A stretch of DNA of 64,000 nucleotides, taken from contig QHTK01000050.1 in assembly GCA_003220795.1 (NCBI GenBank), positions 670 through 64,669 on the forward strand, in the 5' to 3' direction. The position numbers were made by a program, and so were the translations under genes. The notes below the pieces were generated by a model that was not told the origin of the DNA, made no database searches, and saw only the letters and a list, made by a program, of their open reading frames with translations. Position 1 is the first letter of the stretch; each line of letters begins with the position of its first letter. The stretch is from Gemmatimonadota bacterium. Its GTDB lineage: Bacteria > Gemmatimonadota > Gemmatimonadetes > Gemmatimonadales > GWC2-71-9. Positions 7,382 to 40,602 of this stretch are shown here, piece by piece.

Positions 7382-7383
7382 CG

Positions 7384-21032: not shown

Positions 21033-21110
21033 GGGGAGAGCTCCGAAATTGGGGACCCGAATATATCCCGAAGCGCCGCCGGCCGCCAGACCTGCGCACA
21101 GGCGGCGGGA

Positions 21111-22118
21111 TTAAGAGGTGACGATCGCGCGGCGATCGCCGTTCCGTGCGCCGCACTGCCTGAAGAGCTCGGCAAACGTGGCTGCGTACGGCTCGAGAAG
21201 CATGTTGTTGACGTTGCAGCCATCCGGTCCGAAGTACTCTTCGGCGTGCGGCACGACTGATCGCCAGCGCAGCGGCTCGTCGCGGGAACGCACCGAATCC
21301 TCGGAGGGCACGAACAAGCAGACCCGACCCGCATAATGACCAGGGGTGTAGCGACGCCCCGCCGCCAACGTGGCGCGCTCCACTTTGGCGCGCAGGACCA
21401 GAGCCGGATCCGGCGTGGCAGCACGCTCGGCGGCGCGCTGCGCCTTGCGCTGGCGCAGCTTCTCGGCCACGTACGACCGCCGCTCCTCGGACGACAGCGA
21501 TACCAGCGCACGGGTGTGTCCGACCACCCATTCCACCTGTTGTGCGAATCGCTCCCGCAGGAGCGGCAAGCGTCGGAACCTGGCCGGATACGGGGCGCCG
21601 AACAGGGCGAGCAAGCTGATCGCGGTGCCCTCTTGGAGCAATCGTCGCGCCAGCTCGAACGCGATCATGCCGCCGGCGCAGAAGCCGGCGATGATGTACG
21701 GACCATGCGGCCGGCAGGCGCGGATCTGCGGTGCGAAGTACTCGGCCAGATCCTCGACGCGCGCCAGCGGCTTGCTCTCGTCCTCGAGGCCCGGAGGTTG
21801 GAGCCCGTACAACGGCTGCTCATCGCCCAGGTGCCGGGCGATGTAGCGGTAGCAGAACACGTCGCCGTTGTGTCCTCCCACGCCAAAGATGGGCGTGCGG
21901 TTCCCGTGCGGCTGCAATGGTACGATGGCCCGCGGCCGCTGCGCGAGCGTGCCGGCCACGCGCAAGAATTCCAGGATATCGTTCTTGCGTTGCTGCAGCC
22001 GATCGCGCAGCTCGGGCGTTAGCACGTCGGGGGGACCATTGCACCGCAGCCGGTCGCCGTCCGCCCACACGTGAATGTCCCGGCCGCGTAGCTCCGCGAG
22101 AAACGCCGACACCGTCAC
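21111..22118 (-). CDS. stand-alone thioesterase with N-terminal TubC-type beta-hairpin docking domain and Cys at the nucleophile elbow
   Basis: GTG 22118 overlaps the PKS stop (GTGA). Residues VSAFLAELRGRDIHVWADGDRLRCNGPPDVLTPELRDRLQQRKNDILEFL match the TubC_N docking pattern. The alpha/beta-hydrolase TE body reads PIFGVGGHNGDVFCYRYIARHLG...YIIAGFCAGGMIAFELARRL. The elbow is G-F-C-A-G, with codon TGC at 21678-21680 checked on the DNA. Confidence 0.8.
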   Translation of the reverse strand: MTVSAFLAELRGRDIHVWADGDRLRCNGPPDVLTPELRDRLQQRKNDILEFLRVAGTLAQRPRAIVPLQPHGNRTPIFGVGGHNGDVFCYRYIARHLGDEQPLYGLQPPGLEDESKPLARVEDLAEYFAPQIRACRPHGPYIIAGFCAGGMIAFELARRLLQEGTAISLLALFGAPYPARFRRLPLLRERFAQQVEWVVGHTRALVSLSSEERRSYVAEKLRQRKAQRAAERAATPDPALVLRAKVERATLAAGRRYTPGHYAGRVCLFVPSEDSVRSRDEPLRWRSVVPHAEEYFGPDGCNVNNMLLEPYAATFAELFRQCGARNGDRRAIVTS

Positions 22119-25100
22119 AGCTCGATCTCCACCCGGTTGCCGGCTACCGCGCGCCCCGTCGGAGCGCTCGTCGCCCACGCCAGCGCATCGATATAGCGCG
22201 ACAGTTCCGCGACCGTCGGTGCATCAAACAGCGCTCTTACCGGCAAGTCGATCTCGAAGGCCCTCCGCAGTTCGGCCACAATCCTGACCGCCAAGAGAGA
22301 GTGCCCACCCAGCTCCGCAAAACTGTCATGGATGCCCACTTCCTTGATCCCCAGGGCATCCTGCAAGATGCCAGCAATCTGCTTCTCCCTTTCATCCCGC
22401 GGCGCATCATAGCTGGTCTGCAACCTGGGCCGCGGGGCAAGCGCCGATCGAGTCGCACTCGCCACCAGGGCAGGGCCCTGCGCATTCAGTGATTCCAGCT
22501 TGATCCACTGATCGATGCGTGCGCCGAGATCGCCCGTCGACACGACGAGTTGGCTGGCAGTCTTCACGGCCAGCACGGTTTCCATCATCGCCGTCGCTTC
22601 CGGGGCGCTCATGCCCAGTTCCTTGAGCGTTGTCCCGAGACCCGACTCCCTCGCCGTGTCGTCCTCCAGGCGCCAAACGTCCCAGTTCACGCTCAGCCAG
22701 GGTACGGGGGATGTCCGGTTGTGTCGGCGCGCAAACGCGTCCATGTAGATGTTGGACGCGGCGTAGGCGGCCTGCCCGATGCCGCCGAGCACGGATGTCA
22801 AGGAGGACATGAGCAGGCAGAAGTCCAACGGTTTGCCGTCGAGCACGTCTTCCAGCACATGCAAACCGTGTACCTTGGCCTGAAAGTGCCCATCACAATT
22901 GTCAGGGTCGCTCTCTTTGATCTCGCGATAGCCGTCGTCTCCCACGATGCCCGCCCCATGGATGACGCCGTGGAGAACGCCAAAGCGTCGCTCCGCTTGC
23001 TCGATGACCCCTCGCATGGCGGTGGCATCCGCCACACTCGCGTTCACATACAGGACCTCGCCGCCCAGTTTCTCGATCTTCCGAACCGCGCCGATGCTCG
23101 TGCTGACGGGATCATCGGCTGGGTGGCTGCCGATCCACGCGTCCCAGGATTCTCTGCCGGGCAGGCGCGAACGCCCGACCAGCACGAGCCTCGCCCGGTA
23201 GCGCTCGGCGAGGTCCGCCGAGATCGCGACACCGATCTTGCCGAGGCCACCGGTGATGAGATACACACCGCCCTGCCGGAAGGGCGAGCGGTGAGCGGTG
23301 TTGCCTGGTACGACACGCTCGTAGGTCTGCACCCAGCGCTGCCCGTTTCGATAGGCAACGAACAGGCTCGCATCAGAGTCCAGCAGCTCTCCAACAAGGC
23401 GATCCGCGGCGGCGTCGTGCTCACTGGCAGGTGCCGCGACATCGAAATCGACATCGATACTCTTCACGCGGACATTGGCGTACTCTTGACGAATCACCAT
23501 GCACGGCCCCAGCAGCGTCGCTTTCTCCGGGCAGACGGTTTCCGTACAAGAGACCTCGTGGACGTTGTTGGAGAACGCGAACAGCTTGATCTCGTGTCGC
23601 ACGTTGTGTGCGGCGAGCGCACGGGCCAGAAACACCAGGCTGAAAAAGCCTCGGGCCTGCGCCTGCCTGAAACGGTCGCCCGCCGGTTGAGGTGCAGGAA
23701 TGCCGGTGACACTCCAGGCATGCACGATGCGATCCGGCAGGGAGCGAGTCGCCTCCAGGGCTCGGATCAGCAAGTCATAGTGCTGCGAGTTCGCGGGTTC
23801 GATGGTGAACGTGTGAGGGTCCGCTTGTTGAAAGCGTGTGCCGATCCGCACGGTCACCACGGTGTGACCAGCGGCCTCGAGCCGTGTCACCAGGGTGGAG
23901 GCCAGCCCGGAATCATCGGCACATACCAGCCACGTTCTGGCACTCTCGTGCTGCAAGGCCGCTTCATGGATGTCGATGGCACTCGGCAACAGACGAGTCC
24001 AGGACGGCACGTACAGCCATTCGGAACGGTTCGGGTTCTTGTGAACCGTCACGTCCGTCGGCGGAGCGTCCGGTGCGACACGCAGTGGCTCCAGCCAGTG
24101 CTCCTGTCGCTCGAAAGGATACGTCGGCAACGCCACTCTGCGGCGCTGCCCACCGGACGGGACGTTGTCCCACGTGAGCTCGGCGCCTGACAGCCACAGC
24201 CTGGCGATGCCGTGCCACAGGAATTCGACGTCCGATTGGTTTTCGTAATGGTGCCGGATCGAGGACACCACCACCGGATCTCCGCCATCCCGGCGGTCCG
24301 GATGCTGCATCGCCAGCACGCCCAGCGTCCGGCCGGGCCCGGCTTCCAGGAGGATGGGATTCTTGAATTGCCAGAGTTCATGCAAGGCATCGCTGAACCT
24401 GGCGGTTCGAGTGCCATGCGTCGCCCAATAGGACGGCGTGGTCGCCTCGCGTCGCGTAATCCAGGTCCCGGTGACGTTGGAGATGTAGGGAATCGTCGGC
24501 TCGCCCAAACGAACCTTCCCCACCTCTTCCTCGAATGCCTGCACGATCGGATCAAGCATGCGCGAGTGAAAGGCGTGGGCATTCTGCACGGGCCGACAAA
24601 TGATGCTCTTGGCGTTCAACATCCGCTCGAACTCGCGGATCGCCGCAGCCGGACCTGCCACCACACACAAACGTGGCCCGTTGATCAACGAGATCGACAG
24701 CTCCTCGGTCAGTAGGGGAAGCAGTTCCTGTTCCGGCAGCGTCACGGCGAGCATGGCTCCCTGCGGCAACGCATGGACGAGCCTGGCTCGCGACGCGATC
24801 AGCCGCACGGCATCCTCCAGCGACAACACCCCAGCCAGACACGCCGCCACGTATTCACCCATGCTGTGACCGACAATGGCGTCGGGCGTGATACCCAACG
24901 ATTGCCAGAGACGGGTCATGGCATATTCGATCGTGAACAGCGCCGGCTGGGCAAACAGCGTCTGGTTGAGCGTCCGGGCGTCTGGATCCTCCGCGGCAGC
25001 CGTCGTGCGACCGAGCATCTCCTTCAGGTCGATCCCCTTGCTCTTGCCCGCCTTCTTCCAGCGCTGGCCAGGTGGGTACAGGATGTTGCGGATGTCGATC

Positions 25101-26803
25101 TCCAGGTGCGGCTCGAGCAAGCGCGCGCAGCGATCGACTTCTTGCCTGAACACGGGCCACCCTTCGTACACATCATGGGCCATGCCCGGGTAGTGATCGC
25201 CGATACCGGGCAGCAACAGGATCACCGGTCGCCGTGGCTCGCTGGTGCGGCCGGTAACGACGCGCTTCGAGTCTTCCTGTCCGAGGGCGGTAATGGCGTC
25301 CGCGCGGTCGACGCAGACGAGACCCCGCCGATGTGGAAACGCTTTGCGTCCGATGCGCAGGGTGTGAGCCACGTCGCTCAGGTTCACGCAGTCGTTCCCG
25401 ATCAGGAACTCCCGTAAGCGCTGCGTGGCCAGGTCGAGCGCCGTTCTAGTCTTCGCCGACAGCAGCAGCACGTGAGGAGGACGGGCATCCGTCGATGCAG
25501 CCGGCTCCGGCGCTTCCTCGAGCACGAGGTGGGCGTTCGTGCCGCCCATGCCGGTGGACATCACGCCGGCTCGTCTGGGTCCGTCGCTGGTCCAGTCCCG
25601 CAAGCGCGTGTTCACGTAGAATGGCGTGCGGGCAAAATCGATTTCGGGATTGGCCTCCGTGAAGTGGAGACTGGGCGGAAGCTGTCGGTGCTGGAGGGCA
25701 AGGACCGTCTTGATGATACCGGTGACGGCCGCCGCGGCGTCGAGGTGTCCCACATTGGTCTTTACCGAACCGATGGCGCAGTAGCCGGAGCGCTGGGTAA
25801 AGGTGCGGAACGCCTTGGTCAAGGCTCGGACCTCGATGGGATCCCCGACTGGCGTTCCCGAGCCGTGGGCCTCGAGGTAGGTGATGCCGTCGGCCTCGAC
25901 CCCGGCATTGGCCAGCGCCTCCACTACCGCATCGGCCTGGCTGTCGACGCTGGGCGCCGTGTAACCGGCCTTGGCCGCACCATCGTTGTTGACGGCCGAT
26001 CCCTTGATCACGGCGTGGATGGCGTCCCCGTCCGCGAGGGCGTCCGCCAACCGCTTCAGCACCAGGATGCCGCCGCCGCTACCGAACACGGTGCCGTTGG
26101 CCTTGGCGTCAAACGCCCTGACGTGCCCGTCCGGCGAGACGACTCCGCCACCATCACAGAAGTAGCCTGCGCGATGCGGGACCCGCACTGACACTGCCCC
26201 AGCCAAGGCCATGTCGATTTCTTCACTCAAGAGGCTCTGACGGGCCAGGTGGACGGCCACCATGGAGGTCGAGCACGCCGTCTGAACGGTGATGCTGGGC
26301 CCCTTCAAGTTGAGCTTGTAAGAGATCCTGGTGCTCAGAAAATCCTTGTCGTTGCCGATGAGGGTGGGGATGTACTCCTCGGCGAGGCGGCGGTTCAGCC
26401 CGACGTTCGTGAAATAGGTGTTCAGGGCGGTTCCGCTGAACACGCCGACGCGTCCCTGCCAGCGATCCGGGTCATACCCGGCGTGCTCGAGCGCCTCATA
26501 GGCCAGTTCCAACAGGAGCCGGTGCTGTGGATCCATCGTCTTGGCTTCCATCGGCGAGAAGCCGAAGAATCCTGCGTCAAAACCGCCCGGCTGCTCCAGG
26601 ATCGGCGCGGCTTTTACGTAGCTCGGGTTGCTGAGATAGGATGGCGGCACGCCCGATTCCAGGATCTCCTGATCGGAAAGCCGAGCAATCGACTCGATGC
26701 CTGCGGTCAGGTTACGCCAGAACTCGTCGATGTCGCGCGCGCCTGGGAAGCGACCGGCCATCCCGACGATGGCGATATCGGACTCGGTATGCACGGCAGT
26801 CAT
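22115..26803 (-). CDS. type I polyketide synthase, single module KS-AT-KR-ACP
   Basis: Approximate domain spans follow. KS is 25514-26782 (TACSTS Cys at 26273-26275, EAHGSGT, NVGHLD). AT is 24317-25231 (GHSMGE Ser at 24863-24865, HAFHS). KR is 22517-24019 (GGLGKIG, K..S..YAASN). ACP is 22172-22393 (LGGHSL). ATG 26803 overlaps the A-domain stop (TGATG). Confidence 0.92.
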   Translation of the reverse strand: MTAVHTESDIAIVGMAGRFPGARDIDEFWRNLTAGIESIARLSDQEILESGVPPSYLSNPSYVKAAPILEQPGGFDAGFFGFSPMEAKTMDPQHRLLLELAYEALEHAGYDPDRWQGRVGVFSGTALNTYFTNVGLNRRLAEEYIPTLIGNDKDFLSTRISYKLNLKGPSITVQTACSTSMVAVHLARQSLLSEEIDMALAGAVSVRVPHRAGYFCDGGGVVSPDGHVRAFDAKANGTVFGSGGGILVLKRLADALADGDAIHAVIKGSAVNNDGAAKAGYTAPSVDSQADAVVEALANAGVEADGITYLEAHGSGTPVGDPIEVRALTKAFRTFTQRSGYCAIGSVKTNVGHLDAAAAVTGIIKTVLALQHRQLPPSLHFTEANPEIDFARTPFYVNTRLRDWTSDGPRRAGVMSTGMGGTNAHLVLEEAPEPAASTDARPPHVLLLSAKTRTALDLATQRLREFLIGNDCVNLSDVAHTLRIGRKAFPHRRGLVCVDRADAITALGQEDSKRVVTGRTSEPRRPVILLLPGIGDHYPGMAHDVYEGWPVFRQEVDRCARLLEPHLEIDIRNILYPPGQRWKKAGKSKGIDLKEMLGRTTAAAEDPDARTLNQTLFAQPALFTIEYAMTRLWQSLGITPDAIVGHSMGEYVAACLAGVLSLEDAVRLIASRARLVHALPQGAMLAVTLPEQELLPLLTEELSISLINGPRLCVVAGPAAAIREFERMLNAKSIICRPVQNAHAFHSRMLDPIVQAFEEEVGKVRLGEPTIPYISNVTGTWITRREATTPSYWATHGTRTARFSDALHELWQFKNPILLEAGPGRTLGVLAMQHPDRRDGGDPVVVSSIRHHYENQSDVEFLWHGIARLWLSGAELTWDNVPSGGQRRRVALPTYPFERQEHWLEPLRVAPDAPPTDVTVHKNPNRSEWLYVPSWTRLLPSAIDIHEAALQHESARTWLVCADDSGLASTLVTRLEAAGHTVVTVRIGTRFQQADPHTFTIEPANSQHYDLLIRALEATRSLPDRIVHAWSVTGIPAPQPAGDRFRQAQARGFFSLVFLARALAAHNVRHEIKLFAFSNNVHEVSCTETVCPEKATLLGPCMVIRQEYANVRVKSIDVDFDVAAPASEHDAAADRLVGELLDSDASLFVAYRNGQRWVQTYERVVPGNTAHRSPFRQGGVYLITGGLGKIGVAISADLAERYRARLVLVGRSRLPGRESWDAWIGSHPADDPVSTSIGAVRKIEKLGGEVLYVNASVADATAMRGVIEQAERRFGVLHGVIHGAGIVGDDGYREIKESDPDNCDGHFQAKVHGLHVLEDVLDGKPLDFCLLMSSLTSVLGGIGQAAYAASNIYMDAFARRHNRTSPVPWLSVNWDVWRLEDDTARESGLGTTLKELGMSAPEATAMMETVLAVKTASQLVVSTGDLGARIDQWIKLESLNAQGPALVASATRSALAPRPRLQTSYDAPRDEREKQIAGILQDALGIKEVGIHDSFAELGGHSLLAVRIVAELRRAFEIDLPVRALFDAPTVAELSRYIDALAWATSAPTGRAVAGNRVEIEL

Positions 26804-28437
26804 CAACGCCCCACCCGCATGAGCGGCTCCGGCAAGGCCTTGCGATCCGCTTTCCCGCTCGGTGTCACGGGGATTGCGTCGATTCTCTCGAATCGATTGG
26901 GGATCATATAGTCGGGAAGGTGTTGCTTGAGGAAATGCTTCAGACCCGCCATCTCCAGGTCAGATTTGCAGACCACGTACGCGACGATGAGGATGATGGT
27001 GTCCGAGTACTGCTTGACCACGGCCACGCAGTCGCTGATGCCCGGGTACTCCCGGATCGTGTTTTCAATCTCGCCCAGTTCGATGCGCAATCCCCGGATC
27101 TTTACCTGGTGATCCTCCCGGCCGAGATACTCGATATTCCCGTCCGGCAGCCAGCGGGCGATGTCGCCGGTTCGATAGACGCGTTCGCCGGGGTTCGCCG
27201 GATTGTCGGTGAACTTCTCGTCGGTCAGGGCGGCGTTGTTCAGGTAGCCGCGCGCCAGACCGATCCCCGCGATGCACAACTCACCGGGCTCCCCGATCGC
27301 CATCGACCGGCCGTCTCTGATGATGGAGAGCGTGATGTTGTGGATCGGTCTCCCGATGGGAATGATGTCGAAGTCGTTGTGCGGGGGGCAATCGAAATAG
27401 CTGACGTCGACCGTCGCCTCGGTCGGCCCGTAGAGGTTGGTGAGTCGGGTCCCGGTCTTGCTGCCCCAAATATCGTTGAACTTCCTGACGTGACTGGGCG
27501 TCAGCGCTTCACCGCTCGCAAATACCCGCCGCACCGACGCCAGCCGGTTCACCACGCCCGCAGGCTTGCCGTCCAGGTACTCGAGAAACACGTTCAGCAT
27601 CGATGGAACGAAGTGCATGACGCTGACGTGATGTGTGTCGATGGTTTCGACAATGGCCAGGGGATTCCGTTCCCCGCCCGGCACCAGGAAGCAGAGCGTG
27701 GCGCCCTGCAGGGCCCACCAGAACAACTCCCACACCGAAACGTCGAAATAGTAGGGCGTCTTTTGCAGAATGACGTCCCGGTGATCGATCGGGTAGGCGT
27801 GTTGCATCCAGTGCAAGCGGTTGACGAGAGAGCGATGCTCGATCATCACCCCCTTGGGTTTGCCGGTCGACCCCGACGTATAGATCACATAGGCCAGGTC
27901 CCGCGGCGTGTTGACGATCGCGGGGTTCGCGGTTGACGCCCGGTACACGTCGGGGTCGTCGAGATTGATGATCCGCCCCCTGAAGGCGATCCGGTCGGCG
28001 GTCTTGTTCTGCACCAACAGGACGGTGACCCCCCCATCCTTCAGCAGGTAGGAAATGCGATCCGGCGGATTGTCTGGCGAGATGGGCAGATAGGCGCCGC
28101 CGGCCTTCAGGATGCCCAGGATGCCCACGATCATGGCAAAGGAGCGTTCCACCAACAACGCGACGATGTGTCCCGGCCCGACACCCGCGGCCCGCAACAC
28201 ATGCGCCAGTTGATTGACCTTGCCATTGAGCTGCGCGTACGTGAGCGATGGCACGCCGAGCACGGAGTCGTGGTCGCAGATGACGGCCGTTCTATCGAAA
28301 TGCCTGTCGAGCTGCGCCTCGATCAATGCCTGCAGCGTGACGTTATCGGGAAACGGCGTCTCCGTGCGGTTGAATTGCGCGATCCTCGCGAGATCGGCGG
28401 CGGTAGCGACGCGTGGCGGGTGAGCGGCCATGGGCAT
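26803..28437 (-). CDS. stand-alone NRPS adenylation enzyme, predicted L-serine-activating (ZmaJ-like)
   Basis: A-domain core motifs LTYAQLN, YTSGSTGKPKG, FDVSVWE, NLYGPTE, YRTGD, GRxDxQVKIRG and PSGKADRK. There is no C or PCP domain. The 10-residue code from my by-eye alignment to GrsA-PheA is DVWHFSLVDK. ATG 28437 overlaps the upstream stop (TGATG). Confidence 0.85.
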   Translation of the reverse strand: MPMAAHPPRVATAADLARIAQFNRTETPFPDNVTLQALIEAQLDRHFDRTAVICDHDSVLGVPSLTYAQLNGKVNQLAHVLRAAGVGPGHIVALLVERSFAMIVGILGILKAGGAYLPISPDNPPDRISYLLKDGGVTVLLVQNKTADRIAFRGRIINLDDPDVYRASTANPAIVNTPRDLAYVIYTSGSTGKPKGVMIEHRSLVNRLHWMQHAYPIDHRDVILQKTPYYFDVSVWELFWWALQGATLCFLVPGGERNPLAIVETIDTHHVSVMHFVPSMLNVFLEYLDGKPAGVVNRLASVRRVFASGEALTPSHVRKFNDIWGSKTGTRLTNLYGPTEATVDVSYFDCPPHNDFDIIPIGRPIHNITLSIIRDGRSMAIGEPGELCIAGIGLARGYLNNAALTDEKFTDNPANPGERVYRTGDIARWLPDGNIEYLGREDHQVKIRGLRIELGEIENTIREYPGISDCVAVVKQYSDTIILIVAYVVCKSDLEMAGLKHFLKQHLPDYMIPNRFERIDAIPVTPSGKADRKALPEPLMRVGR

Positions 28438-29603
28438 CAGTCGGATCGGGCCAACGGGCCGCATCTGCCGGCTTGATCGACGAAGATCTTCCCCAGGATG
28501 TCTTCATGGATCTGGGTGGTGCCTTCGATGATCTCCATGATCTTGGCGTCCCGGTAATACCGGGACACCGCGGAGGATCCGTGACAGCCCGCCGCCCCCT
28601 GGATCTGCACGGCATCGGACGCGGCTCGCACCACGGCTCGCGACGTGAAGTACTTGGCCATCAAGGTCTTCTCGAACGCTTCCGGACGATGGTCGTCCTC
28701 CGCGCGGCAGGCAGTGTGGCACAACGCGCTCGCGGCCTCCAAATCGGTGCCCATGCGCGCGATCAGCGATCGGACCATCCCCATGTCGCCCACGGTCTTG
28801 TCGCCGATCTTCCGCATGGCGGCGTGGGCGATGCTTTCCTCGAAGCATCCTCGCAGCAGCCCCAATGCCGAGCAGGCCGTGCTGATGCGTCCGTAGTGCA
28901 AGCCTACCGGGGCGACGTGGGACAAGGCGTAGCCGGGCTTGCCAACGAGGTTGGCGGATGGCACTTCCACATCTTGGAAGTGCAGCTGCGCCAGGCCGGC
29001 CGCGCGGAACCCCAGCAAATCGGAGATGGGTTCGATGCGCAGACCGGGAGTGTCCTTGGGCACCACACACGCCACCGAACGTCCTCCCAGGGTCCCGAAC
29101 ACCAGAAACACCGCGGCGAACTGGGCGCAGCTGATCCATTTCTTGCTTCCGTTCAGCACGAGCCCCTGTGAGTTCCCGGTGAACTCCGTCACCAGCGACT
29201 GCATGGCACTGCCGGCGCCCGGCTCCGTCAGGGCGAAGGCCCCGAGCATCTCCCCCTTGGCGAGGGGAGGAAGCCATCTGCGCTTCTGCTCCGTCGTGCC
29301 CCACTTGAGGAGCGCCATAGACACCATCGCTTGGACCGTGAGGACGCCCGTCAAAGCGGACGATGCTCTCCCGAAGGCTTCATTCAGCAAACCGAACGTG
29401 ACGATATCCCATCCCTGGCCGCCATACTCCGGCGGCAGACTGCAGCCCAGGTAGCCGGCCTGGGCCATCTGCGAGATCACGCCCGCGGGGACCTGCTGGT
29501 CCCGGTCCCACTGCTCGGCGAACGGGGCGACGTTCAGCGTGACAAAGGCCTTGAATTCCTCTCTCTTCTCAACCACTCGGCCGTCCGTTCTTGCGCAGGA
29601 CAA
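28437..29603 (-). CDS. acyl-CoA/acyl-ACP dehydrogenase (FkbI/ZmaI-like)
   Basis: ACAD fold with YYRDAKIMEIIEGTTQI (catalytic Glu block). The start is uncertain: TTG 29603 or GTG 29576. Both overlap the ACP gene's end. Confidence 0.8.
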   Translation of the reverse strand: MSCARTDGRVVEKREEFKAFVTLNVAPFAEQWDRDQQVPAGVISQMAQAGYLGCSLPPEYGGQGWDIVTFGLLNEAFGRASSALTGVLTVQAMVSMALLKWGTTEQKRRWLPPLAKGEMLGAFALTEPGAGSAMQSLVTEFTGNSQGLVLNGSKKWISCAQFAAVFLVFGTLGGRSVACVVPKDTPGLRIEPISDLLGFRAAGLAQLHFQDVEVPSANLVGKPGYALSHVAPVGLHYGRISTACSALGLLRGCFEESIAHAAMRKIGDKTVGDMGMVRSLIARMGTDLEAASALCHTACRAEDDHRPEAFEKTLMAKYFTSRAVVRAASDAVQIQGAAGCHGSSAVSRYYRDAKIMEIIEGTTQIHEDILGKIFVDQAGRCGPLARSD

Positions 29604-29847
29604 AGGCCGTCGTCGCGTTGAGCGACTTGAAATTCTCGATGTCCAGATCGTCCCGCCCCATTTCCATAGCGAACGTCTTCTCGATGAAGGTCATCAACTG
29701 CACCGCAAACAAGGAATTGACGATTCCCGATTCGAACAGGTTGGCGTCATCGTCCAAGTCCGGGACGGCGATCGAGCTCAGGATGAAGCTCCGGATCGTG
29801 TGTTTGATGCCGTTCGGGTCCGCGGTGCTCATGGACTCCTCCGTCAT
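29569..29847 (-). CDS. free-standing acyl carrier protein (FkbJ/ZmaH-like)
   Basis: 92 aa with FESGIVNSLFAVQLMTFIEKTF (Ser attachment motif, NSL variant of DSL). ATG 29847 overlaps the upstream stop (ATGA). An alternative ATG lies at 29832. Confidence 0.8.
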   Translation of the reverse strand: MTEESMSTADPNGIKHTIRSFILSSIAVPDLDDDANLFESGIVNSLFAVQLMTFIEKTFAMEMGRDDLDIENFKSLNATTAFVLRKNGRPSG

Positions 29848-30707
29848 TCCAGGCCCGGATAGGCATGAAATCCCCTTCCGGTCTTCCGCCCCAAATGGCC
29901 GGCATGCACCAGCTTTCTCAGCAACGGACAGCAGCGGTACTTCGGATCCCGAAAGCTTTCGTACAGGACATCGAGCGACCGCATCACCGTGTCCAAGCCG
30001 ATCAGGTCCGCGGTTTCCAACGGTCCCATCTTGTGCCCGAAGCATTTCTTGAAGATCGAGTCGATCTGCTCGGCCGTCGCCACGTTATCCTGCAGCACAA
30101 ACGCGGCCTCGTTCATGAACAAATGGGAAATCCGGTTGGACACAAAGCCCGGCATGTCCTGGACGATGATGGCTTCCTTGCCAAGCACGGCAAACAGCCG
30201 CAGCAACGTGTCGACGGTCCCGTCGGAGGTATGGAACCCGCGAATCACCTCGACGGTCGGTTTCAGATGAACCGGATTCATGAGGTGGATGCCCACCACG
30301 TTGGCCGGACGCCCGGTGGCGCTGGCTATCTGCGTGATCGGGATACACGACGTATTGGCCCCAAAACACACCTCGCGTGGCGCCACTCGATCCAGCTGCT
30401 CATAGACCGGCTTCTTGACATGCCAGTCCTCGGTCACGTTCTCGATGATGAAGTCACATGACGCCACGTCCTGCAGATCGGTCGTGAACACCATGCGTTG
30501 CAGGGCGTCCTCCGGCGTTACGCGTGGCAGCGTCTTCGACAGCAAGGGGACGCAGCGGACGTTGTTCAACACGGCGGCTTGCGCGCGCTTCAGGATGTCT
30601 TGCGAGATGTCCACCACGACCGCGGATATCCCATGCAGCACCAGGTCGGTTACGACGCCGCTGCCGATGTTTCCCGCGCCCAGCACGCCGATCTGTTTGA
30701 ATTGCAT
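29844..30707 (-). CDS. 3-hydroxyacyl-CoA/ACP dehydrogenase (FkbK/ZmaG-like)
   Basis: MQFKQIGVLGAGNIGSG NAD fold plus a 3HCDH C-terminal domain (GFVSNRI...GPLETADLIGLD). ATG 30707 lies 2 nt after the upstream TAA. The track ORF extension to 30842 is spurious. Confidence 0.85.
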   Translation of the reverse strand: MQFKQIGVLGAGNIGSGVVTDLVLHGISAVVVDISQDILKRAQAAVLNNVRCVPLLSKTLPRVTPEDALQRMVFTTDLQDVASCDFIIENVTEDWHVKKPVYEQLDRVAPREVCFGANTSCIPITQIASATGRPANVVGIHLMNPVHLKPTVEVIRGFHTSDGTVDTLLRLFAVLGKEAIIVQDMPGFVSNRISHLFMNEAAFVLQDNVATAEQIDSIFKKCFGHKMGPLETADLIGLDTVMRSLDVLYESFRDPKYRCCPLLRKLVHAGHLGRKTGRGFHAYPGLE

Positions 30708-30709
30708 GG

Positions 30710-33700
30710 TTACGACGCCTTCCGCCGCGTGACGTTGCGCCGCCGCTGACCCCGTAACGCGGCCGCGGCGGCGCTGCCGGCGCCGTCGCGCCCGCCGGAG
30801 GCCGCGCGTAATTTGGCGGCCAACAGGCTCACGGTGGGGCACTCGAACAGGCTGACGATCGACAGATGCTGCTTCAGCTCCCGCTTGATCGCGGCAATCA
30901 CCTGCACCGCCCGGAGGGACGTGCCGCCCACGTCGAAGAAATTGTCGTGGATCCCGATGCGCCGGCCCAACACCCTACTCCAGATGTTCAACAGCGCGGC
31001 TTGTAGCGTGCTGGACGGTGCGACGTCGACCGGAGCATCGAGCGGCTGCTTTCGGAGCCGGTATGCCTCGATGGCCTTTGCGACCCGGTCGATGTCGTAC
31101 AGGTGTTCCCCGATCACCTGCAGGGGCTCCGACCGATCACCGACGCCGAATCCCCAGACCTGTCGGGGCGGGCGGGCGTCCGGGTGGGGAGGCGCCGGCG
31201 CCTCGAGCCCGGGGTGCGCCGTTTGGTCGGGGTCGTATGCGAGGCTCGCCAGGCGGTCAGCGGCGAACGTCCAGGACGCGCCGGCCGGGTCGCCGTCGGG
31301 ACCGCCGATGTTCCGGATGAACTCCCGGACCGGCGCATTCTTTTCCGTCGGCCGATGGGAGAGTTCCACGAGGCGTTTGCCTTCCCTGGCCGCCTGCTGG
31401 CCGAGGTGAGCCAGGACCGCGTGCTCCACGCCTTTGCCCAACACCCGACAGCTCAACAGCAGGGTATCCACTTTGTAGCGGTCGGTCGCTGTCTCATACA
31501 TCACGACCCCGACCAGCCCGTAGTCCCCGAATCGGTCGACGACGTGAACCACCAGACAGGTGACATCGTTCTGCTGCAAGATGTCTCGAATCTCCTGCTC
31601 CGAGCGTCGGATGGTGGTGAAGTTGAATTGGTTCGTTCGGAACGTCAGCTGCGACACACGGGCGAGCTGGTCGTCGGTCGCTTCGGCGATCTCGACGCGC
31701 AGTTGCAGCCCGTTCACAAAGTCTTTCAAAGAGAGGGTTTGCTCCCGGAACCGTTGCCGCTCCGCGTTTTCCTGGTACATCCGGGTGCGGGCGCGATCTT
31801 CCTCGGTCGCACCCGCGTGATCGAACGCCCACACACGATTCAGGAACGCCGGGATCGACTCGCTGCGCTGCGGCAGCTGCAACGTCAACACGCCGGGGCA
31901 GTTGATGCGGACATCCGCGCAATCCACCGGGTTGTCATCGATGAAGATGAAGCTCTCCAACCCGAGATTGAGCTCGTGCGCGAGCGACATGACGTTCTCC
32001 GACTTGCTGTTCCAATTGATGCGCCGCGCAACCAGGTGCTCGCGCTTCAGCACCATGTCGGTCCGCTGGTCGAAGACGTCCAGCACATCCTGCTCGTTGT
32101 TCTTGCTGCACAGACAGAGCAGCATGCCGGCGTTCATGCGCCCGAGCATGAATTCCTGCAACCGGCGGAACGGGGCGCTCACTTCGATGCCCTGCGGACC
32201 GTCCTCGCCGCACACCCCCTTCCACAACGTGTTGTCGCAGTCCAGCACGATCACCTTGAATGGCGGTCGCTGCAGGTTGTAGATGGTGCGGACCAGCGTC
32301 GTCCCGATCGCCGCGTAGCCCTGCGAGGTGTACGGGATGTGACCCGCCTGATCACTGTGCGGGTCGTAGTACTCGTCGACCGGATACTGCTGCAACGGCG
32401 ACGCCGAGCGGATCGTGTGCACGTTCGGTATCGTGGCGGCCGCCGTCCGCAAGGTCTGCTCGGCCTCGTCCAGCGCCGCCTTGAGGTCGGCGTCGGCTTC
32501 CGCGGGCGGGGTCCTGGGGCAGACACACAACACCACGGGCGCCGTGGCCTGGCTCATGAACGACCGCAGCGCGGTGCAGAAGTCCCGGACGGTTCGCTGT
32601 AGGCCGCCTGCCGTCTGACGTGACTGATCCAACCCGGATGCGACGGGCGCGTCACCCCGGGTTCCATAGAGATTGAACAACCCGGCATGCTCGAGCAGCC
32701 GTTCGTGTTCGACGGCGCAGCGGAACCCCTTCTGGACGAGCAGTGCTTCGATCTGTTTGACCGCCTGCTCGGTGCGGTCGTGGATCTCGATCACAATCTG
32801 GGCGATCTTCGGCCAGTCGCGATCGTCAATGCCCCGGATGATGTCCAGCTCGCTCTTTTCCGCATCGATCTTGAGGAGGTCGATCTTGTCGATCCGGTAC
32901 TCTCGAATCATCTCCGACACGGATGTCAGACGGCACTCGTGGGTCGTGCGACTGAGCCGGTTTGCGGTGAGCTCGGTGACATATTCCTCCACCGCGTCCC
33001 CTGCCACCGACGTCTCGCTGCTCAGGGTGTTCCGCACTACCGCTTGAATGGCCTCGCGGTCCTCGGTTTCATCTGCATGAAACCCCGAGAACACGGAGGA
33101 CTTCTCATAGAAGGTCAAGGTCGCGGTCTTGGGCCGGTCCGACACACCGACGTTCAGGGCTCGGACCTGCGATCCGTAGGCCTCGCAGTTGGCCTTCAAG
33201 AGCTCATACACGGCGGGCGCCGGTTCACAGGCGTAGATCGTCGGGTTGCGACAGCGGCTCATCACAAACAACGAGAACAGCCCGATGTTGGCCCCGATAT
33301 CCACCACCGTGGCTCCGTCCGGCAAGCGGATGCCATGCTTCAGATAGCAGCGATCTTCGAAGATCTCCTTGTAGACATAGTCCGTTTCATACCGGTTCAG
33401 ATGAACGATCTCCAGGCCATTGGGCAGGACGCATCTGGTCCGGTCGCCGAAGCACTGGTCCGCCCGTTCCCTGGTGAGCGTCATGACCCCGCGCGGATCC
33501 CCCGTGGCCCACGCCTCCAACCCCAAGAGGATGACTTTGACTGCGTCGCGGCGCGTGCGGAACGCGCTGCCCGCGTCCAGCAGCTGCTGAAAGATCTGAT
33601 TGTAGGGCGCAAATTCGACGTGGATCGGCGTGCCGAAATGGTCACCCCAGAAGCGCAGGGAATCCTCTACCGGCTCAGCGGTGAAATTCGAGGCGATGAC

Positions 33701-34543
33701 GAGGTTGGCGGCCGTCGCTTCACCGGCCGCGTCGGCGCGGTCCAGCACGCTGAACGTGACGCCGGAGAGATCGAAGTACGGCGTGCCGGACTGGTCGAAC
33801 ACCCGAACGTTGCCGACGAGACTCTTGCCATCGCGTTCACTCTCCGGAAGCAGCACGGCGTGCCCCCAGAGCGTATCGGGGAAGCGGACGTCCGTTACTG
33901 CGATCTTCTCGATCGACCGCAGGATGAACGTCTTCCCCTGCTCGAGCATGCAGGACGCCAGTAACTGGGTGGCGGAGTCGAGCAGGCTCGGGTGCAGGTC
34001 AGGTTCGTCGACTGCTCCGTCTCGGTGCGCTACGGCAAGCCGCCCCAAGGACTGGTCCCCTGCCCGCCAGATCGACGCAACGTGTTGAAACCCGGGCCCG
34101 TATTGGTTGCCATTTTCACGGAGCGTCTTGTAGAACCGGTCCGAGTCGATCAGGTCATGAGACTGCGCTTGGAACGCTTCGATGGAAAACGCTTCCGTGC
34201 TCGCTCTCGGAGACGGTGCCGGGTTCCGGTCGATGTCGAGCTTGGCAGCAGGCTCCGCAACCCCTGCTTCGTAGAACGTGTATTCAACGCGGCCGTTGCC
34301 GTGATCCCCGACGTCGACCCTTACGATCGTGTCTTCTGCCGAAACAATGATGGGATTGTGAAACGTCACGTTCCGGACGAGACCCGCAACGCCCTTGGAG
34401 CGTTCACGCTCCAGGCGCAGGGCCATGTCGACGTAGCACGACCCGGGCAGCACGACCATGTCGTGGAACCCGTGATCTGCCAGGTACGGCATGGAACGAA
34501 TGCCGATCCTGAATTCGGCGGAGGCTACTTCAGTTGTGCTCAC
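30710..34543 (-). CDS. multidomain loading-type protein: PKS dehydratase - FkbH-like domain with embedded FkbM methyltransferase - ACP
   Basis: Approximate domain spans follow. DH is 33719-34522 (LADHGFHDMVVLPGS and LLDSATQ). The FkbH N-subdomain is 33494-33712 (NLVIASNFTAEPVEDSLRFW). The FkbM MTase is 32654-33421 (VVDIGANIGLFSLF...IDLLKIDAEKSELDII). The FkbH HAD core plus C-terminal domain is 31229-32551 (VLDCDNTLW, LLSCRVLGKGVE). ACP is 30809-31021 (FFDVGGTSL). I prefer GTG 34543 (GGGGA SD) over TTG 34573. Confidence 0.85.
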   Translation of the reverse strand: MSTTEVASAEFRIGIRSMPYLADHGFHDMVVLPGSCYVDMALRLERERSKGVAGLVRNVTFHNPIIVSAEDTIVRVDVGDHGNGRVEYTFYEAGVAEPAAKLDIDRNPAPSPRASTEAFSIEAFQAQSHDLIDSDRFYKTLRENGNQYGPGFQHVASIWRAGDQSLGRLAVAHRDGAVDEPDLHPSLLDSATQLLASCMLEQGKTFILRSIEKIAVTDVRFPDTLWGHAVLLPESERDGKSLVGNVRVFDQSGTPYFDLSGVTFSVLDRADAAGEATAANLVIASNFTAEPVEDSLRFWGDHFGTPIHVEFAPYNQIFQQLLDAGSAFRTRRDAVKVILLGLEAWATGDPRGVMTLTRERADQCFGDRTRCVLPNGLEIVHLNRYETDYVYKEIFEDRCYLKHGIRLPDGATVVDIGANIGLFSLFVMSRCRNPTIYACEPAPAVYELLKANCEAYGSQVRALNVGVSDRPKTATLTFYEKSSVFSGFHADETEDREAIQAVVRNTLSSETSVAGDAVEEYVTELTANRLSRTTHECRLTSVSEMIREYRIDKIDLLKIDAEKSELDIIRGIDDRDWPKIAQIVIEIHDRTEQAVKQIEALLVQKGFRCAVEHERLLEHAGLFNLYGTRGDAPVASGLDQSRQTAGGLQRTVRDFCTALRSFMSQATAPVVLCVCPRTPPAEADADLKAALDEAEQTLRTAAATIPNVHTIRSASPLQQYPVDEYYDPHSDQAGHIPYTSQGYAAIGTTLVRTIYNLQRPPFKVIVLDCDNTLWKGVCGEDGPQGIEVSAPFRRLQEFMLGRMNAGMLLCLCSKNNEQDVLDVFDQRTDMVLKREHLVARRINWNSKSENVMSLAHELNLGLESFIFIDDNPVDCADVRINCPGVLTLQLPQRSESIPAFLNRVWAFDHAGATEEDRARTRMYQENAERQRFREQTLSLKDFVNGLQLRVEIAEATDDQLARVSQLTFRTNQFNFTTIRRSEQEIRDILQQNDVTCLVVHVVDRFGDYGLVGVVMYETATDRYKVDTLLLSCRVLGKGVEHAVLAHLGQQAAREGKRLVELSHRPTEKNAPVREFIRNIGGPDGDPAGASWTFAADRLASLAYDPDQTAHPGLEAPAPPHPDARPPRQVWGFGVGDRSEPLQVIGEHLYDIDRVAKAIEAYRLRKQPLDAPVDVAPSSTLQAALLNIWSRVLGRRIGIHDNFFDVGGTSLRAVQVIAAIKRELKQHLSIVSLFECPTVSLLAAKLRAASGGRDGAGSAAAAALRGQRRRNVTRRKAS

Positions 34544-35237
34544 GTATCGTCCCCGGGATTGCCTTCTGTGCAACGATGGCGCCGATCAGTCCGGGTCCGG
34601 GCACAAAGCTGTAAAGCGTCCACCCACAACGGTCCCCGGGCGTCGAGTCCACGCGGAGAATTCGGGCCGGCTCACCCGGCTCAAACGAAACATCGAAGCG
34701 ATCGAGCGGGTGGGAGAGCCCGTCACCGAGCGCCTTGATGAAGGCTTCCTTACGGGTCCAGCAAGAGAAGAACGCGAGGGGCTTGTCGCTCGGGTCGAGG
34801 GCGCGGTAGGCCTCGCTCTCACGCCGGGAAAACATGCGGGCTGCGATGTCGTCGGCGTCGGGAATCACCCGCACGGCTTCGACGTCGATTCCGACCTCGC
34901 GCCCGAAGGCAAACGCATAGACGGCCACGTCGTCGCAGTGCGATACGCTGAATCGCAGGTTCGAAGCCGCGACACGTCGCGCGAGCGCCGGCTTGCCGCG
35001 TTCCCCGTACACCAGCTCGACCGAGTCGGCCCCGATGTCCAACCGCGCCGCGAGCAACTGGCGCAGACGCGCCCGCGCGACGGTAAACCGGCGGCGATCG
35101 CATTCGAAAGCAAAGCGACCGGCTCTGTGTCGCTCCTCCTGCGAGAGCAGCGCAGCCGATGCGCGGAGCGCACCCGGCCCCACGTCCAGTCGCGTCACCA
35201 CAACGTCGACGGCAGCTGCGCCTCCGCAAGCGGGCAT
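34530..35237 (-). CDS. Sfp-type 4'-phosphopantetheinyl transferase
   Basis: Motifs GKP...FSVSHC, VGIDVE and FSCWTRKEAFIKALG. Start set to ATG 35237 (GGAG 9 nt upstream). The track ORF extension to 35381 is Arg-rich noise. Confidence 0.85.
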   Translation of the reverse strand: MPACGGAAAVDVVVTRLDVGPGALRASAALLSQEERHRAGRFAFECDRRRFTVARARLRQLLAARLDIGADSVELVYGERGKPALARRVAASNLRFSVSHCDDVAVYAFAFGREVGIDVEAVRVIPDADDIAARMFSRRESEAYRALDPSDKPLAFFSCWTRKEAFIKALGDGLSHPLDRFDVSFEPGEPARILRVDSTPGDRCGWTLYSFVPGPGLIGAIVAQKAIPGTIREHN

Positions 35238-35405
35238 GGTTTCTCCGGGATCCAATGCTGCGGCGTCCCTCACGGTAGATCGTGCGGCGGCTGGGTGGTG
35301 CAAATTTCGGACTGGGAGGGGACGCGGGCACCCGTGTCCGTTCCTGTTGCGTCGACGCCACACACCGTGTGCGTTCACCACGTTGCGGCGGCGGCCACAT
35401 GAAGA

Positions 35406-36995
35406 CTAGGGCCGCAGCGATCCGCAATCGTAATGGCTTATGCTCCGCAGCGTCGGCTCGAGCCGCAAGCGCATGAGGCTCCTCAACACCGCCGCCAGGG
35501 ACCGCTGCGCAATCACGAGCTCGACCTCGCCGGGCGCCTTCGCGTAGCGACAGGGGTACAGAGCGAGCCTGCGGTAGATCCGCGCTTCGGGATAGGACGG
35601 CACCTTCATCTCTTCCATGGACCACACCCCGTAATCCAGCACATTCCGGCCAGACTCGTCCTGCGTCACGTACACGCGGATGGCGGAAGGAAGGTCACGT
35701 CGTACGCCGTCGCTGACGTAGATCTGAGCCCTCTTCGTGTCGCCAGAGAACAGCGTGAAGGAGAGATATGAGTCCCACAATTGGACGAAGCTCAACGCCG
35801 GAAGGATGGCGAACAGCACGAGGACGGCCACGTGATACCAGCCGTTCGCGGGCGAGAGGATTTGCCGAGCCGGCAGGAGCGCCGTGTTGCGAAACAGGAG
35901 GAAGTTGAAAGCGATCATCGCGAGGTTCCATGGCCACACGCCTCGATCGATGTTGTGTCCCAGCGGTCCGAGACAGACGAGGATGAAGAGGTGCATCGGG
36001 ATGGCGGCGATTATCGCGGTGAACCGCCATCGTGTGGTGATCAGGCCGATGCCGATGCCCACTTCGAGGAGCGCCACGCCGGCGCCCAACCACGCGAGGT
36101 ATTCCACCATGCCGGCGGGAATGGTGAAGAGGCCTTGCAGAAACCACGGGAAGACACCGTTGACAAAGCTCCGGTTGAGCTTATGGAGGCCACTCCAGAG
36201 GTAGACGCTCGCCACGATGACACGACAGGTGTTGAGCGCCACCGCCGCCGGGGCGGCGGGTTCCCGCTTCCAGTAGTGCAGGGCGAGGGCGCCGAGCATG
36301 AAGACGTACTGATAGAACCAGGGCTGCCACCGGGACTGGTCCAACACGCTCAGACCGCCCGCGATGATCAGGATCGCGGCGAGCGGTCGCAGCGGTCTCC
36401 GCGCCGCCGCCGCCGCGCCGAGGAGCAGGAGGAGCACGACGAACACGACGTAGTCGAGTGGAAAGGGGATCGTGGGTGAGTGGGCCCACACCGGCATGAG
36501 AGGATAGGTGCGAGAGGAGACCCAGAGTTTCTGCGACAGGAGCAGTCCAGCGGCGAGGGCCAGGCACAGTGCCAGCTTGAGTCGCTCCAGCCGGACGTCG
36601 TCCCCGACCTGATTTTCTAGACGTTCCGGGCGGAAGAGGAACCGCGAGAACCACTGACGCCTACCTGCTACGACCCGATACGCCGCCTCCACGAGCCAGA
36701 TCAGGGGACGGGTCGAGAAGACGGCCGAGAACCGTCGCCATCCGACCGCGTCCATGAGGTAGAGGCTCGCCCGACCAGCACTCAGCACCACGCCCTCGGG
36801 CGTCAGGACGTGGATGGCGTGCGCGCAGCGGCGGGCGAGCGCCTCGGTCATCGGTGGGCGTGGCGCCACCTGGTACGGGACGGGAAAGAGTCGATCGTGC
36901 CGATCCTGTCGCTTGATCCAATCCACGGCTCGACGACAGAAGCCGCAGGTCCCGTCCCAGAACACCCATGCTTGATCCGCGCGGCGCTCGCTCAT
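35406..36995 (-). CDS. DCC1-like thiol-disulfide oxidoreductase (CxxC) domain fused to a large polytopic membrane domain of unknown function
   Basis: The N-terminal 120 aa read WVFWDGTCGFCRRAVDWIKRQD...F.PYQ (DUF393/DCC pattern). About 9 TM helices follow, then a ~120-aa soluble tail. ATG 36995 is 12 nt after the upstream gene's stop. Confidence 0.6.
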   Translation of the reverse strand: MSERRADQAWVFWDGTCGFCRRAVDWIKRQDRHDRLFPVPYQVAPRPPMTEALARRCAHAIHVLTPEGVVLSAGRASLYLMDAVGWRRFSAVFSTRPLIWLVEAAYRVVAGRRQWFSRFLFRPERLENQVGDDVRLERLKLALCLALAAGLLLSQKLWVSSRTYPLMPVWAHSPTIPFPLDYVVFVVLLLLLGAAAAARRPLRPLAAILIIAGGLSVLDQSRWQPWFYQYVFMLGALALHYWKREPAAPAAVALNTCRVIVASVYLWSGLHKLNRSFVNGVFPWFLQGLFTIPAGMVEYLAWLGAGVALLEVGIGIGLITTRWRFTAIIAAIPMHLFILVCLGPLGHNIDRGVWPWNLAMIAFNFLLFRNTALLPARQILSPANGWYHVAVLVLFAILPALSFVQLWDSYLSFTLFSGDTKRAQIYVSDGVRRDLPSAIRVYVTQDESGRNVLDYGVWSMEEMKVPSYPEARIYRRLALYPCRYAKAPGEVELVIAQRSLAAVLRSLMRLRLEPTLRSISHYDCGSLRP

Positions 36996-37007
36996 CGCGC
37001 GGGCTTC

Positions 37008-40582: not shown

Positions 40583-40602
40583 CGCCGCGTTCCATGACGG
40601 CC

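Follow-up and report, generated by a model that had tools for sequence, protein, structure and literature searches.

Loading modules built around an FkbH domain are known from several natural product pathways. The first module of OocJ has the order dehydratase (DH), methyltransferase (MT), FkbH and acyl carrier protein (ACP), and was once judged inactive, with a DH and an MT without conserved motifs, yet mutation of its ACP abolished production (PMC4552970). Module 1 of OocJ was later reinterpreted as functional; modules 1 and 2 agree in their domain set with the phormidolide polyketide synthase (PKS), in which the equivalent module was assigned a 2-methoxyacrylyl starter derived from 1,3-bisphosphoglycerate (1,3-BPG); the methoxyvinyl group is kept in haterumalide B and biselide B, and this DH/FkbH starter architecture was found "with variations" in such PKSs (PMC6174933). 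The loading module of BslA, which consists of an O-methyltransferase, FkbH, a peptidyl carrier protein (PCP) and a sulfotransferase and has no DH, was proposed to provide 2-O-methylglycerate 3-sulfate (PMC13122637). A different kind of building block is prepared in zwittermicin biosynthesis, where ZmaJ puts serine on ZmaH and ZmaG and ZmaI oxidize it to aminomalonyl-ACP, while ZmaD and ZmaE work for hydroxymalonyl-ACP and ZmaG serves both pathways (PMC6395733). Here we describe a gene cluster on a 64,000-nucleotide stretch of a Gemmatimonadota bacterium (assembly GCA_003220795.1, contig QHTK01000050.1, positions 670 to 64,669; the whole stretch is hereafter called the window) that encodes a free-standing DH-MT-FkbH-carrier protein, hereafter the loader, next to genes that are best read as an aminomalonyl-ACP cassette.

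The loader was encoded by a single open reading frame (ORF) on the minus strand (Table 1) with a length of 1287 amino acids (aa) when counted from TTG. The GTG at position 34543 is the likely start codon (~1277 aa), because alignments with homologues begin at residues 9-17, a GGGGA stands upstream, and this GTG overlaps the stop codon of the preceding phosphopantetheinyl transferase (PPTase) gene. An earlier note on this DNA had named a DH, an FkbM-type MT, an FkbH domain and an ACP in this protein, and family hidden Markov models (HMMs) bore out all four calls. The DH was recognized by PKS_DH_N (52 bits, residues 21-102) and PS-DH (85.5 bits, residues 135-280), and the carrier by PP-binding (52.8 bits, residues 1193-1253), with PCPs of nonribosomal peptide synthetases (NRPSs) as its closest solved structures. 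The FkbH model TIGR01686 matched residues 772-1093 over profile positions 3-321 of 323 with 314.6 bits (cut-off 146.65). The segment that the note had taken for an FkbM methyltransferase scored above the cut-offs of both models of this family at residues 422-619 (PF05050, 61.1 bits with cut-off 22.7; TIGR01444, 85.4 bits with cut-off 37.7). All motif and codon positions cited in the note were also correct on the ORF translation.

Across an alignment with 40 homologues of 64-81% identity, catalytic residues were invariant or nearly so in each of the four parts. The DH carried His34 in LADHGFHDMVVLP, a YGPGF motif and Asp199/Gln203 in LLDSATQ; its His, Pro, YGPxF and DxxxQ were (nearly) invariant in the window family, in agreement with the catalytic DH motifs named in the note, and were also kept in distant megasynthase versions. 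No exchange was seen in the VVDIGANIG motif of the MT, in DCDNT or in the Cys of SCRVLG.

The MT lies inside the N-terminal domain of FkbH. Six short-form FkbH-carrier proteins matched the loader continuously at residues ~290-357 and ~650-1250, and the ~290 residues bearing the MT were missing from them. An AlphaFold model of loader residues 281-1110 (40 homologues; mean pLDDT 78.6, pTM 0.43) showed the order beta-alpha-beta-alpha-beta, MT, alpha-beta-alpha-beta-alpha, after which came the HAD domain and, at the C-terminus, an alpha/beta subdomain. The strands of the first half were at positions 9-15, 37-41 and 65-70 of the model, the linker to the MT came after the third strand, and the MT was flanked on either side by linkers of low pLDDT. 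When the model was compared with the PDB using Foldseek, the top match was 3slr (Bacteroides BF1531, an N-terminal domain plus HAD phosphatase; E 6e-16, 393 columns), which covered both halves of the N-terminal domain plus the HAD domain; next in rank were GNAT acetyltransferases, which corresponded to the subdomain with Cys1042, and then HAD phosphatases. Alignment, order of secondary structure elements and the 3slr match thus indicate that, as the note had proposed, the MT is genuinely inserted into the N-terminal domain of FkbH.

Free-standing short forms of ~640-690 aa, composed of the N-terminal domain, the FkbH core and usually a carrier, were present in loci L018, L021, L028, L039, L041, L049, L060 and others, with a thioesterase directly after them in L018, L039 and L060. 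Such short-form proteins were widespread in metagenome-assembled genomes (MAGs) of Bryobacterales, Planctomycetes and Gammaproteobacteria. Three further proteins, from Paenibacillus solani (L044), an Ignavibacteriaceae MAG (L052) and Bacillus inaquosorum (L056), had been considered as MT-containing FkbH modules and were rejected, as Pfam gave condensation (C)-FkbH-PCP with neither MT nor DH; a B. pumilus protein (L058) was grouped with them by its blast pattern. These four look like glycerate-incorporating modules, a type described for vioprolide and cystomanamide.

A protein search with the loader (clusters at 90% identity) returned more than 120 clusters with its four Pfam domains at 60-99% identity, the named ones being annotated as "FkbH-like protein/FkbM family methyltransferase". 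We further searched for the nested arrangement with residues 281-770 against 1.84 billion cluster representatives (50%-identity clusters), which gave 1853 matches below 1e-30. Among the best 150 of these matches, 97 covered the nested arrangement in one stretch, including 57 of 1150-1400 aa that stand alone and begin with an N-terminal extension the size of a DH, 14 in which such an extension is present and further modules follow, and 12 without it. One of the 14 longer nested proteins (P0230), annotated as "FkbH like protein", came from Musicola (formerly Dickeya) paradisiaca Ech703, a strain which we take to carry the ooc cluster. We compared this protein with the published description of OocJ, and its Pfam domains (DH, FkbM MT, ACP, KS, two ECH stretches, ACP, KS; KS for ketosynthase) equaled the architecture published there. 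Residues 284-770 of the loader aligned with its residues 304-796 in a single stretch at 37% identity, and both proteins possessed the His and Asp of the DH, the motif of the MT, DCDNT and the Cys; the Ech703 protein also had the published GVDS motif of the ACP. The YGP motif was degenerate in OocJ-type proteins. A protein from a Pseudanabaenales cyanobacterium MAG (P0233) had the same first two modules.

With the first module of OocJ published and 97 of the best 150 matches nested, the combination of a DH with an embedded FkbM-type MT was not the unusual one that the note had seen in it. The note had also allowed that the domain order might be common and already characterized; common and described it is, whereas biochemical characterization did not come to light. 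The loader belongs to a known module type, of which it is a free-standing representative. What appears to be undescribed in the literature searched is the occurrence of such a loader together with a cassette for aminomalonyl in a line of one module with a cis-acyltransferase (cis-AT). The same literature search gave nothing linking Gynuella sunshinyii to FkbH.

For the FkbH, MT and DH parts of the loader, homology suggests the following catalytic steps. The HAD part of FkbH would take 1,3-BPG and strip its 3-phosphate, and Cys1042 in the GNAT-like part would transfer the glyceryl unit onto the phosphopantetheine arm at Ser1219. The 2-hydroxyl would then be methylated by the nested MT, and the N-terminal DH would remove H-2 and the 3-hydroxyl to leave CH2=C(OMe)-CO-S-carrier. 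Methylation at this site would agree with the 2-O-methylglycerate unit proposed for BslA (PMC13122637) and with the closest free-standing relative of the MT, which is encoded in an HCDH-ACP-ACAD-FkbH operon (L074, see below). The DH might well act on the loaded unit, since glyceryl thioesters belong to the beta-hydroxyacyl thioesters, the normal substrates of a DH. Among the products considered in the note, an enol-ether starter, formed from a C3 unit by dehydration and O-methylation, gained support, since the literature assigns 2-methoxyacrylyl to the homologous phormidolide/oocydin module (PMC6174933).

A role as starter loader was further supported by two relatives that directly precede a KS. 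In a Thermodesulfovibrionia MAG (L008) a 42% identical relative was encoded directly before a KS-AT-ketoreductase (KR)-ACP module, which was followed by a docking-C-adenylation (A)-PCP NRPS and then a further C domain, and in L012 the relative likewise stood directly before a KS. Neither a 3-hydroxyacyl dehydrogenase (HCDH) nor an acyl-ACP dehydrogenase (ACAD) was found in the DNA examined of these two loci, which was clearest in L008, as only 8.5 kb were available for L012. In the window the loader was the sole loading device for a single KS. The NRPS A domain of the Thermodesulfovibrionia locus (L008:3002-16290) had a serine-type pocket, DVWHISLVD, and this locus represents a second, larger pathway on the same starter.

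Directly downstream of the loader, with the ATG at 30707 immediately after the loader stop codon, followed an HCDH, a small discrete ACP, an ACAD and a free-standing AMP-binding A enzyme, whose gene was translationally coupled to that of the ACAD. The nine pocket residues of the A domain (DVWHFSLVD) were those of the serine-activating enzyme EntF of E. coli and were identical in all syntenic loci. When the ACAD was searched against 72,556 plasmids, megaplasmids of Bacillus thuringiensis/cereus were among the best matches, and on pBMB431 the match sat immediately upstream of the annotated zmaJ, with the order HCDH-ACP-ACAD-zmaJ as in the window. Pairwise identities were 50% between the A domain and ZmaJ and 55% between HCDH and ZmaG. 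The ACP was 43% identical to ZmaH versus 37% to ZmaD, and the ACAD 47% identical to ZmaI (368 bits) versus 35% to ZmaE (255 bits). It was this comparison on the Bacillus plasmid that decided the matter, as a PDB sequence search with the ACAD had not singled out FkbI (rank 16). Because of the EntF-identical pocket, the identities to Zma proteins and a gene order equal to zmaG-H-I-J, the four genes are best read as an aminomalonyl-ACP cassette of the zmaG-H-I-J type. By orthology, serine would be loaded on the discrete ACP and oxidized there to aminomalonyl-ACP. The proposal of the note that the adjacent dehydrogenases supply hydroxy- or methoxymalonyl-ACP was not supported, as these dehydrogenases belong to a zmaG-H-I-J-like set and relatives of the loader directly precede a KS in loci in whose examined DNA such enzymes were not found, most clearly in L008. 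A reading of the AMP-binding gene as a fatty acyl-AMP ligase, with a 2-methoxy-3-hydroxy fatty acid as product, was ruled out by TIGR01733 and the EntF-identical pocket.

The cluster contained a single PKS module (KS-AT-KR-ACP) with an intact Cys/His/His triad in the KS, an NADPH motif in the KR and no DH of its own. Its AT would pass aminomalonyl to the ACP of the module, the KS would condense it with the starter, and the KR would reduce the resulting ketone. The docked thioesterase, for which GTG at 22118 is the probable start, would release 2-amino-3-hydroxy-4-methoxypent-4-enoic acid or possibly its beta-lactone. The acid (C6H11NO4) would be expected at [M+H]+ 162.076 and the alpha-amino-beta-lactone at [M+H]+ 144.066. 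The nucleophile position of the thioesterase was occupied by a Cys (GFCAGG, codon 21678-21680), which aligned with the catalytic Ser of 7crn and was also present in the counterpart from L005. A Cys at this position was likewise found in many thioesterases beside short-form FkbH-carrier genes (L016, L018, L035, L039, L049, L057, L060), while others kept Ser. The thioesterases of ObiF and SulM also use a Cys nucleophile and close beta-lactone and beta-lactam rings on small products (PMC11298585); the window thioesterase gave no sequence match to either at E <= 0.01, and ring formation by this enzyme is pure conjecture.

Taken together, we consider the loader to be a free-standing module that builds a 2-methoxyacrylyl starter on its own carrier and feeds a pathway extending with aminomalonyl, and put the probability of this reading at roughly 65%. 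Several points weigh against it. The assignment of 2-methoxyacrylyl in phormidolide and oocydin was, as far as found in the literature, drawn from product structure and architecture and not from an enzyme assay. The order of methylation followed by dehydration within the loader is a weak point, and the loader DH might act in trans on behalf of the KS-AT-KR-ACP module, which has none of its own, and not on the starter. Retention of the DH before a KR-less module might have been followed in a Caldilineaceae locus (L014), which was set aside due to broken reading frames. Asp replaces the Gly of HxxxGxxxxP in the DH, although His34 and Pro43 are present. Finally, GHSMG and HAFH in the AT resemble malonyl-CoA signatures, and if malonyl-CoA were used the entry of the serine-derived unit would be unexplained.

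An action of the DH in trans is part of an alternative in which FkbH, MT and fused carrier together with HCDH and ACAD form a methoxymalonyl extender, while the A domain loads serine as starter on the discrete ACP; dehydration of the KR product would then give 4-amino-5-hydroxy-2-methoxypent-2-enoic acid. Besides the missing DH of the PKS module, the position of HCDH, ACP and ACAD next to FkbH, as in fkbH-K-type operons, would fit this alternative, and so would the use of ZmaG in both the hydroxy- and the aminomalonyl pathway (PMC6395733). Such an operon with a free-standing homologue of the nested MT was present in Rhizonema sp. PD38 (L074:10337-14391), where a free-standing FkbM-type MT was followed by HCDH, ACP, ACAD and a core-only FkbH. 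This MT was the closest free-standing relative of the nested MT (43% identity), and the set resembles a cassette of the methoxymalonyl type in which an FkbM-type enzyme takes the place of the FkbG-type O-methyltransferase. Nevertheless, the window ACAD was clearly nearer to ZmaI than to ZmaE and the ACP nearer to ZmaH than to ZmaD, the genes stood in the order of zmaG-H-I-J, loader relatives directly preceded a KS in loci where HCDH and ACAD were not found (L008, L012), and the homologous module of OocJ and phormidolide is a starter-unit module. We therefore regard a methoxymalonyl extender as unlikely. It is quite unlikely that the loader is active only in part, with DH and/or MT as relics and glyceryl, 2-O-methylglyceryl or pyruvoyl as starter. 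The published judgment that the DH and MT of OocJ have no conserved motifs (PMC4552970), the degenerate YGP of OocJ-type proteins and the Gly to Asp exchange could be taken in this sense, whereas OocJ1 was later reinterpreted as functional and methoxyvinyl congeners were found (PMC6174933). Relic domains are also disfavored by the conservation of catalytic residues, as the DH residues and VxDIGANIG were (nearly) invariant in the 40 homologues down to 64% identity and kept in distant megasynthases.

The AT bears on a further alternative, in which malonyl-CoA as extender gives a 3-hydroxy-4-methoxypent-4-enoyl chain and the unit derived from serine is joined otherwise, e.g. as a nucleophile for the Cys-thioesterase. 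The unusual Cys of that enzyme would suit this role, and the GHSMGE and HAFH motifs of the AT fit the signatures GHSMG and HAFH associated with malonyl-CoA (PMC4207774); the corresponding motifs are GYSLG/GPFH in ZmaF and GYSFG/GAAH in the AT of ZmaA, and the AT near the Rhizonema cassette has GYSIG. The conserved gene set, however, held neither a C domain nor a second KS. Moreover, ATs of the window family had PGIGDHY (25190-25210 in the window) in place of the G-Q-G-[AS]-Q of ATs in cassette-less loci, comparable to P-G-V-G-S-H-Y in the aminomalonyl-specific ZmaF and P-G-L-G-T-H-Y in L074, so that G-[VIL]-G-x-H-Y is common to these ATs. A basic insertion of 25-30 aa (25007-25060) was likewise restricted to the window family and L074 and missing from ATs of cassette-less loci. 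The eight cassette-linked ATs of the window family are orthologues, so these features amount to at most three independent observations, and a link to carrier-bound extenders is suggestive only; possibly the motif change and the insertion mark ATs that accept such extenders. Positions equivalent to RXR did not separate cassette from non-cassette loci, and a PDB search with the AT placed the AT of ZmaA third, with the malonyl-specific CurL close behind. On balance, malonyl-CoA as extender seems very unlikely to us.

The operon comprised eight conserved genes in the order PPTase, loader, HCDH, small ACP, ACAD, AMP-binding protein, KS-AT-KR-ACP and docking thioesterase. The set recurred in L001-L007, L010, L011 and L027, which included MAGs of Acidobacteriota, Betaproteobacteria, Verrucomicrobiota, Terriglobia and Ignavibacteriota, and the PPTase adjoined the loader also in L001-L003 and L011. 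Because the set recurs, and in L005 does so with all eight genes in a different order, we consider the eight genes as one functional unit. The island (~21100-37000) had a G+C content of 63.8% versus ~69% in both flanks, and it was surrounded by housekeeping genes for PEP carboxylase (7231-10149), citrate synthase (37292-38419), PFK (39275-40720) and PNPase (43018-45123), which together suggests horizontal acquisition. We tentatively propose, with less than even confidence, that the island of eight genes forms a minimal but complete assembly line which joins 2-methoxyacrylyl and aminomalonyl to an undescribed enol-ether beta-hydroxy-alpha-amino acid or alpha-amino-beta-lactone and has spread horizontally. 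The low-G+C island also contained, 24 bp upstream of the PPTase gene, a 529-aa ORF (35406-36995, minus strand) with a DCC1-like thiol-disulfide oxidoreductase domain and a weak, below-cut-off match to MauE. This ORF was not found beside the cluster in any related locus and had no NCBIfam match.

Table 1. Coordinates of the loader, its domains and motifs, and the other genes of the cluster within the window
Feature	Position	Strand	Basis
Whole loader: DH, FkbH with nested FkbM-type MT, carrier	30710..34573	minus	ORF, HMMs, motifs
PKS dehydratase, double hot-dog, residues 21-280	33734..34513	minus	Pfam PF21089, PF14765
FkbH N-terminal alpha/beta domain, first half, residues 288-360 (NLVIASNFTAEP...VILLGLEAW)	33494..33712	minus	alignment with short-form FkbH-carrier N-termini; model
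Nested FkbM-family S-adenosylmethionine (SAM) methyltransferase plus two linkers, residues 361-650	32624..33493	minus	PF05050, TIGR01444; missing from short forms
FkbH N-terminal domain, second half, residues 651-770	32264..32623	minus	alignment, model, Foldseek
FkbH core, residues 772-1093: HAD-IIIC phosphatase, then GNAT-like transfer subdomain	31295..32260	minus	TIGR01686, TIGR01681, fold matches
Carrier domain, PCP type (FFDVGGTSL), Ser1219 codon 30917-30919	30815..30997	minus	PF00550
LADH	34472-34483	minus	motif located in ORF
YGPGF	34088-34102	minus	motif located in ORF
LLDSATQ	33965-33985	minus	motif located in ORF
NLVIASNFTAEPVEDSLRFW	33647-33706	minus	motif located in ORF
VVDIGANIG (SAM motif I)	33281-33307	minus	motif located in ORF
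DCDNT (Asp778/Asp780)	D778 codon 32240-32242	minus	HAD motif
SCRVLG	Cys1042 codon 31448-31450	minus	GNAT-like subdomain
GGTSL	Ser1219 codon 30917-30919	minus	carrier site
Sfp/HetI-type PPTase, first operon gene	34530..35381	minus	PF01648, PF22624, below-cut-off HetI model match
ZmaG/FkbK-type HCDH	29844..30707	minus	PF02737, PF00725; 55% to ZmaG
Discrete ACP, ZmaH-like	29569..29847	minus	PF00550; 43% to ZmaH
ZmaI-type acyl-ACP dehydrogenase, ACAD fold	28437..29603	minus	Pfam; 47% to ZmaI
Free-standing serine-activating A enzyme, ZmaJ-like	26803..28464	minus	TIGR01733 434 bits; 50% to ZmaJ
Single PKS module KS-AT-KR-ACP	22115..26806	minus	domain HMMs, motifs
Thioesterase with N-terminal TubC-type docking domain	21111..22178	minus	PF00975, PF18563

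Assignment of the 2-methoxyacrylyl starter in phormidolide and the oocydins goes back to product structures and the arrangement of domains in very large trans-AT synthases. A free-standing, soluble protein of ~1280 aa would, if its four activities are intact, be a convenient model for the cooperation of FkbH, a nested O-methyltransferase and a DH on one carrier. The cluster is small enough to be expressed as a whole, which would test a cis-AT with malonyl-type motifs on aminomalonyl-ACP and could reveal a small reactive amino acid from abundant uncultured soil bacteria. If the reading of horizontal spread is true, this pathway would be shared among uncultured Acidobacteriota, Betaproteobacteria, Verrucomicrobiota and Ignavibacteriota of soil and groundwater. 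With respect to annotation, entries of ~1300 aa named "FkbM family methyltransferase" or "FkbH-like protein/FkbM family methyltransferase" would represent starter-unit modules, and the presence of HCDH-ACP-ACAD beside FkbH does not by itself imply methoxymalonyl-ACP.

Among known systems, the zwittermicin A genes zmaG-H-I-J correspond to the cassette of the window in gene order and in all four protein types, with 43-55% identity and a serine A domain. Zwittermicin biosynthesis employs a separate AT, ZmaF (GYSLG, GPFH), whereas the only AT in the window is the cis-AT of the PKS (GHSMG, HAFH). The FkbG/H/I/J/K methoxymalonyl pathway resembles the window in having FkbH, FkbK-like and FkbI-like dehydrogenases, an ACP and an O-methyltransferase side by side; in contrast, the window MT is of the FkbM family, not FkbG-type, and nested in FkbH, a serine A domain is present, and the aminomalonyl proteins are the closer relatives of ACAD and ACP. 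ObiF (obafluorin) and SulM (sulfazecin) share with the window thioesterase the Cys nucleophile and an expected small, beta-substituted alpha-amino acyl substrate, but the window enzyme is free-standing and has a docking domain. The loader has FkbH-based glycerate loading and O-methylation within the module in common with the published description of BslA (suomilide/banyaside), which is part of an NRPS and has no DH, so that the 3-hydroxyl is retained and sulfated. The loading module of BryA (bryostatin) reportedly has the order DH-KR-FkbH-ACP and a starter derived from 1,3-BPG, with lactyl as proposed product; it would thus share with the loader a DH before FkbH and carrier, and differ by a KR instead of the MT and by lactyl instead of an enol ether. 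The greatest likeness is to module 1 of OocJ and phormidolide, in domain set and order (DH, FkbM-type MT, FkbH, ACP) and in the proposed 2-methoxyacrylyl starter from 1,3-BPG, and the Ech703 protein also has the same MT insertion site in the FkbH N-terminal domain and the same catalytic residues. While OocJ-type modules stand at the N-terminal end of a megasynthase that exceeds 3500 aa in a trans-AT line with beta-branching, have a GVDS carrier motif and a degenerate YGP in the DH, the loader of the window is a free-standing protein of ~1277 aa with a PCP-like GGTS carrier motif and a canonical YGPxF, and would serve a single module with a cis-AT.

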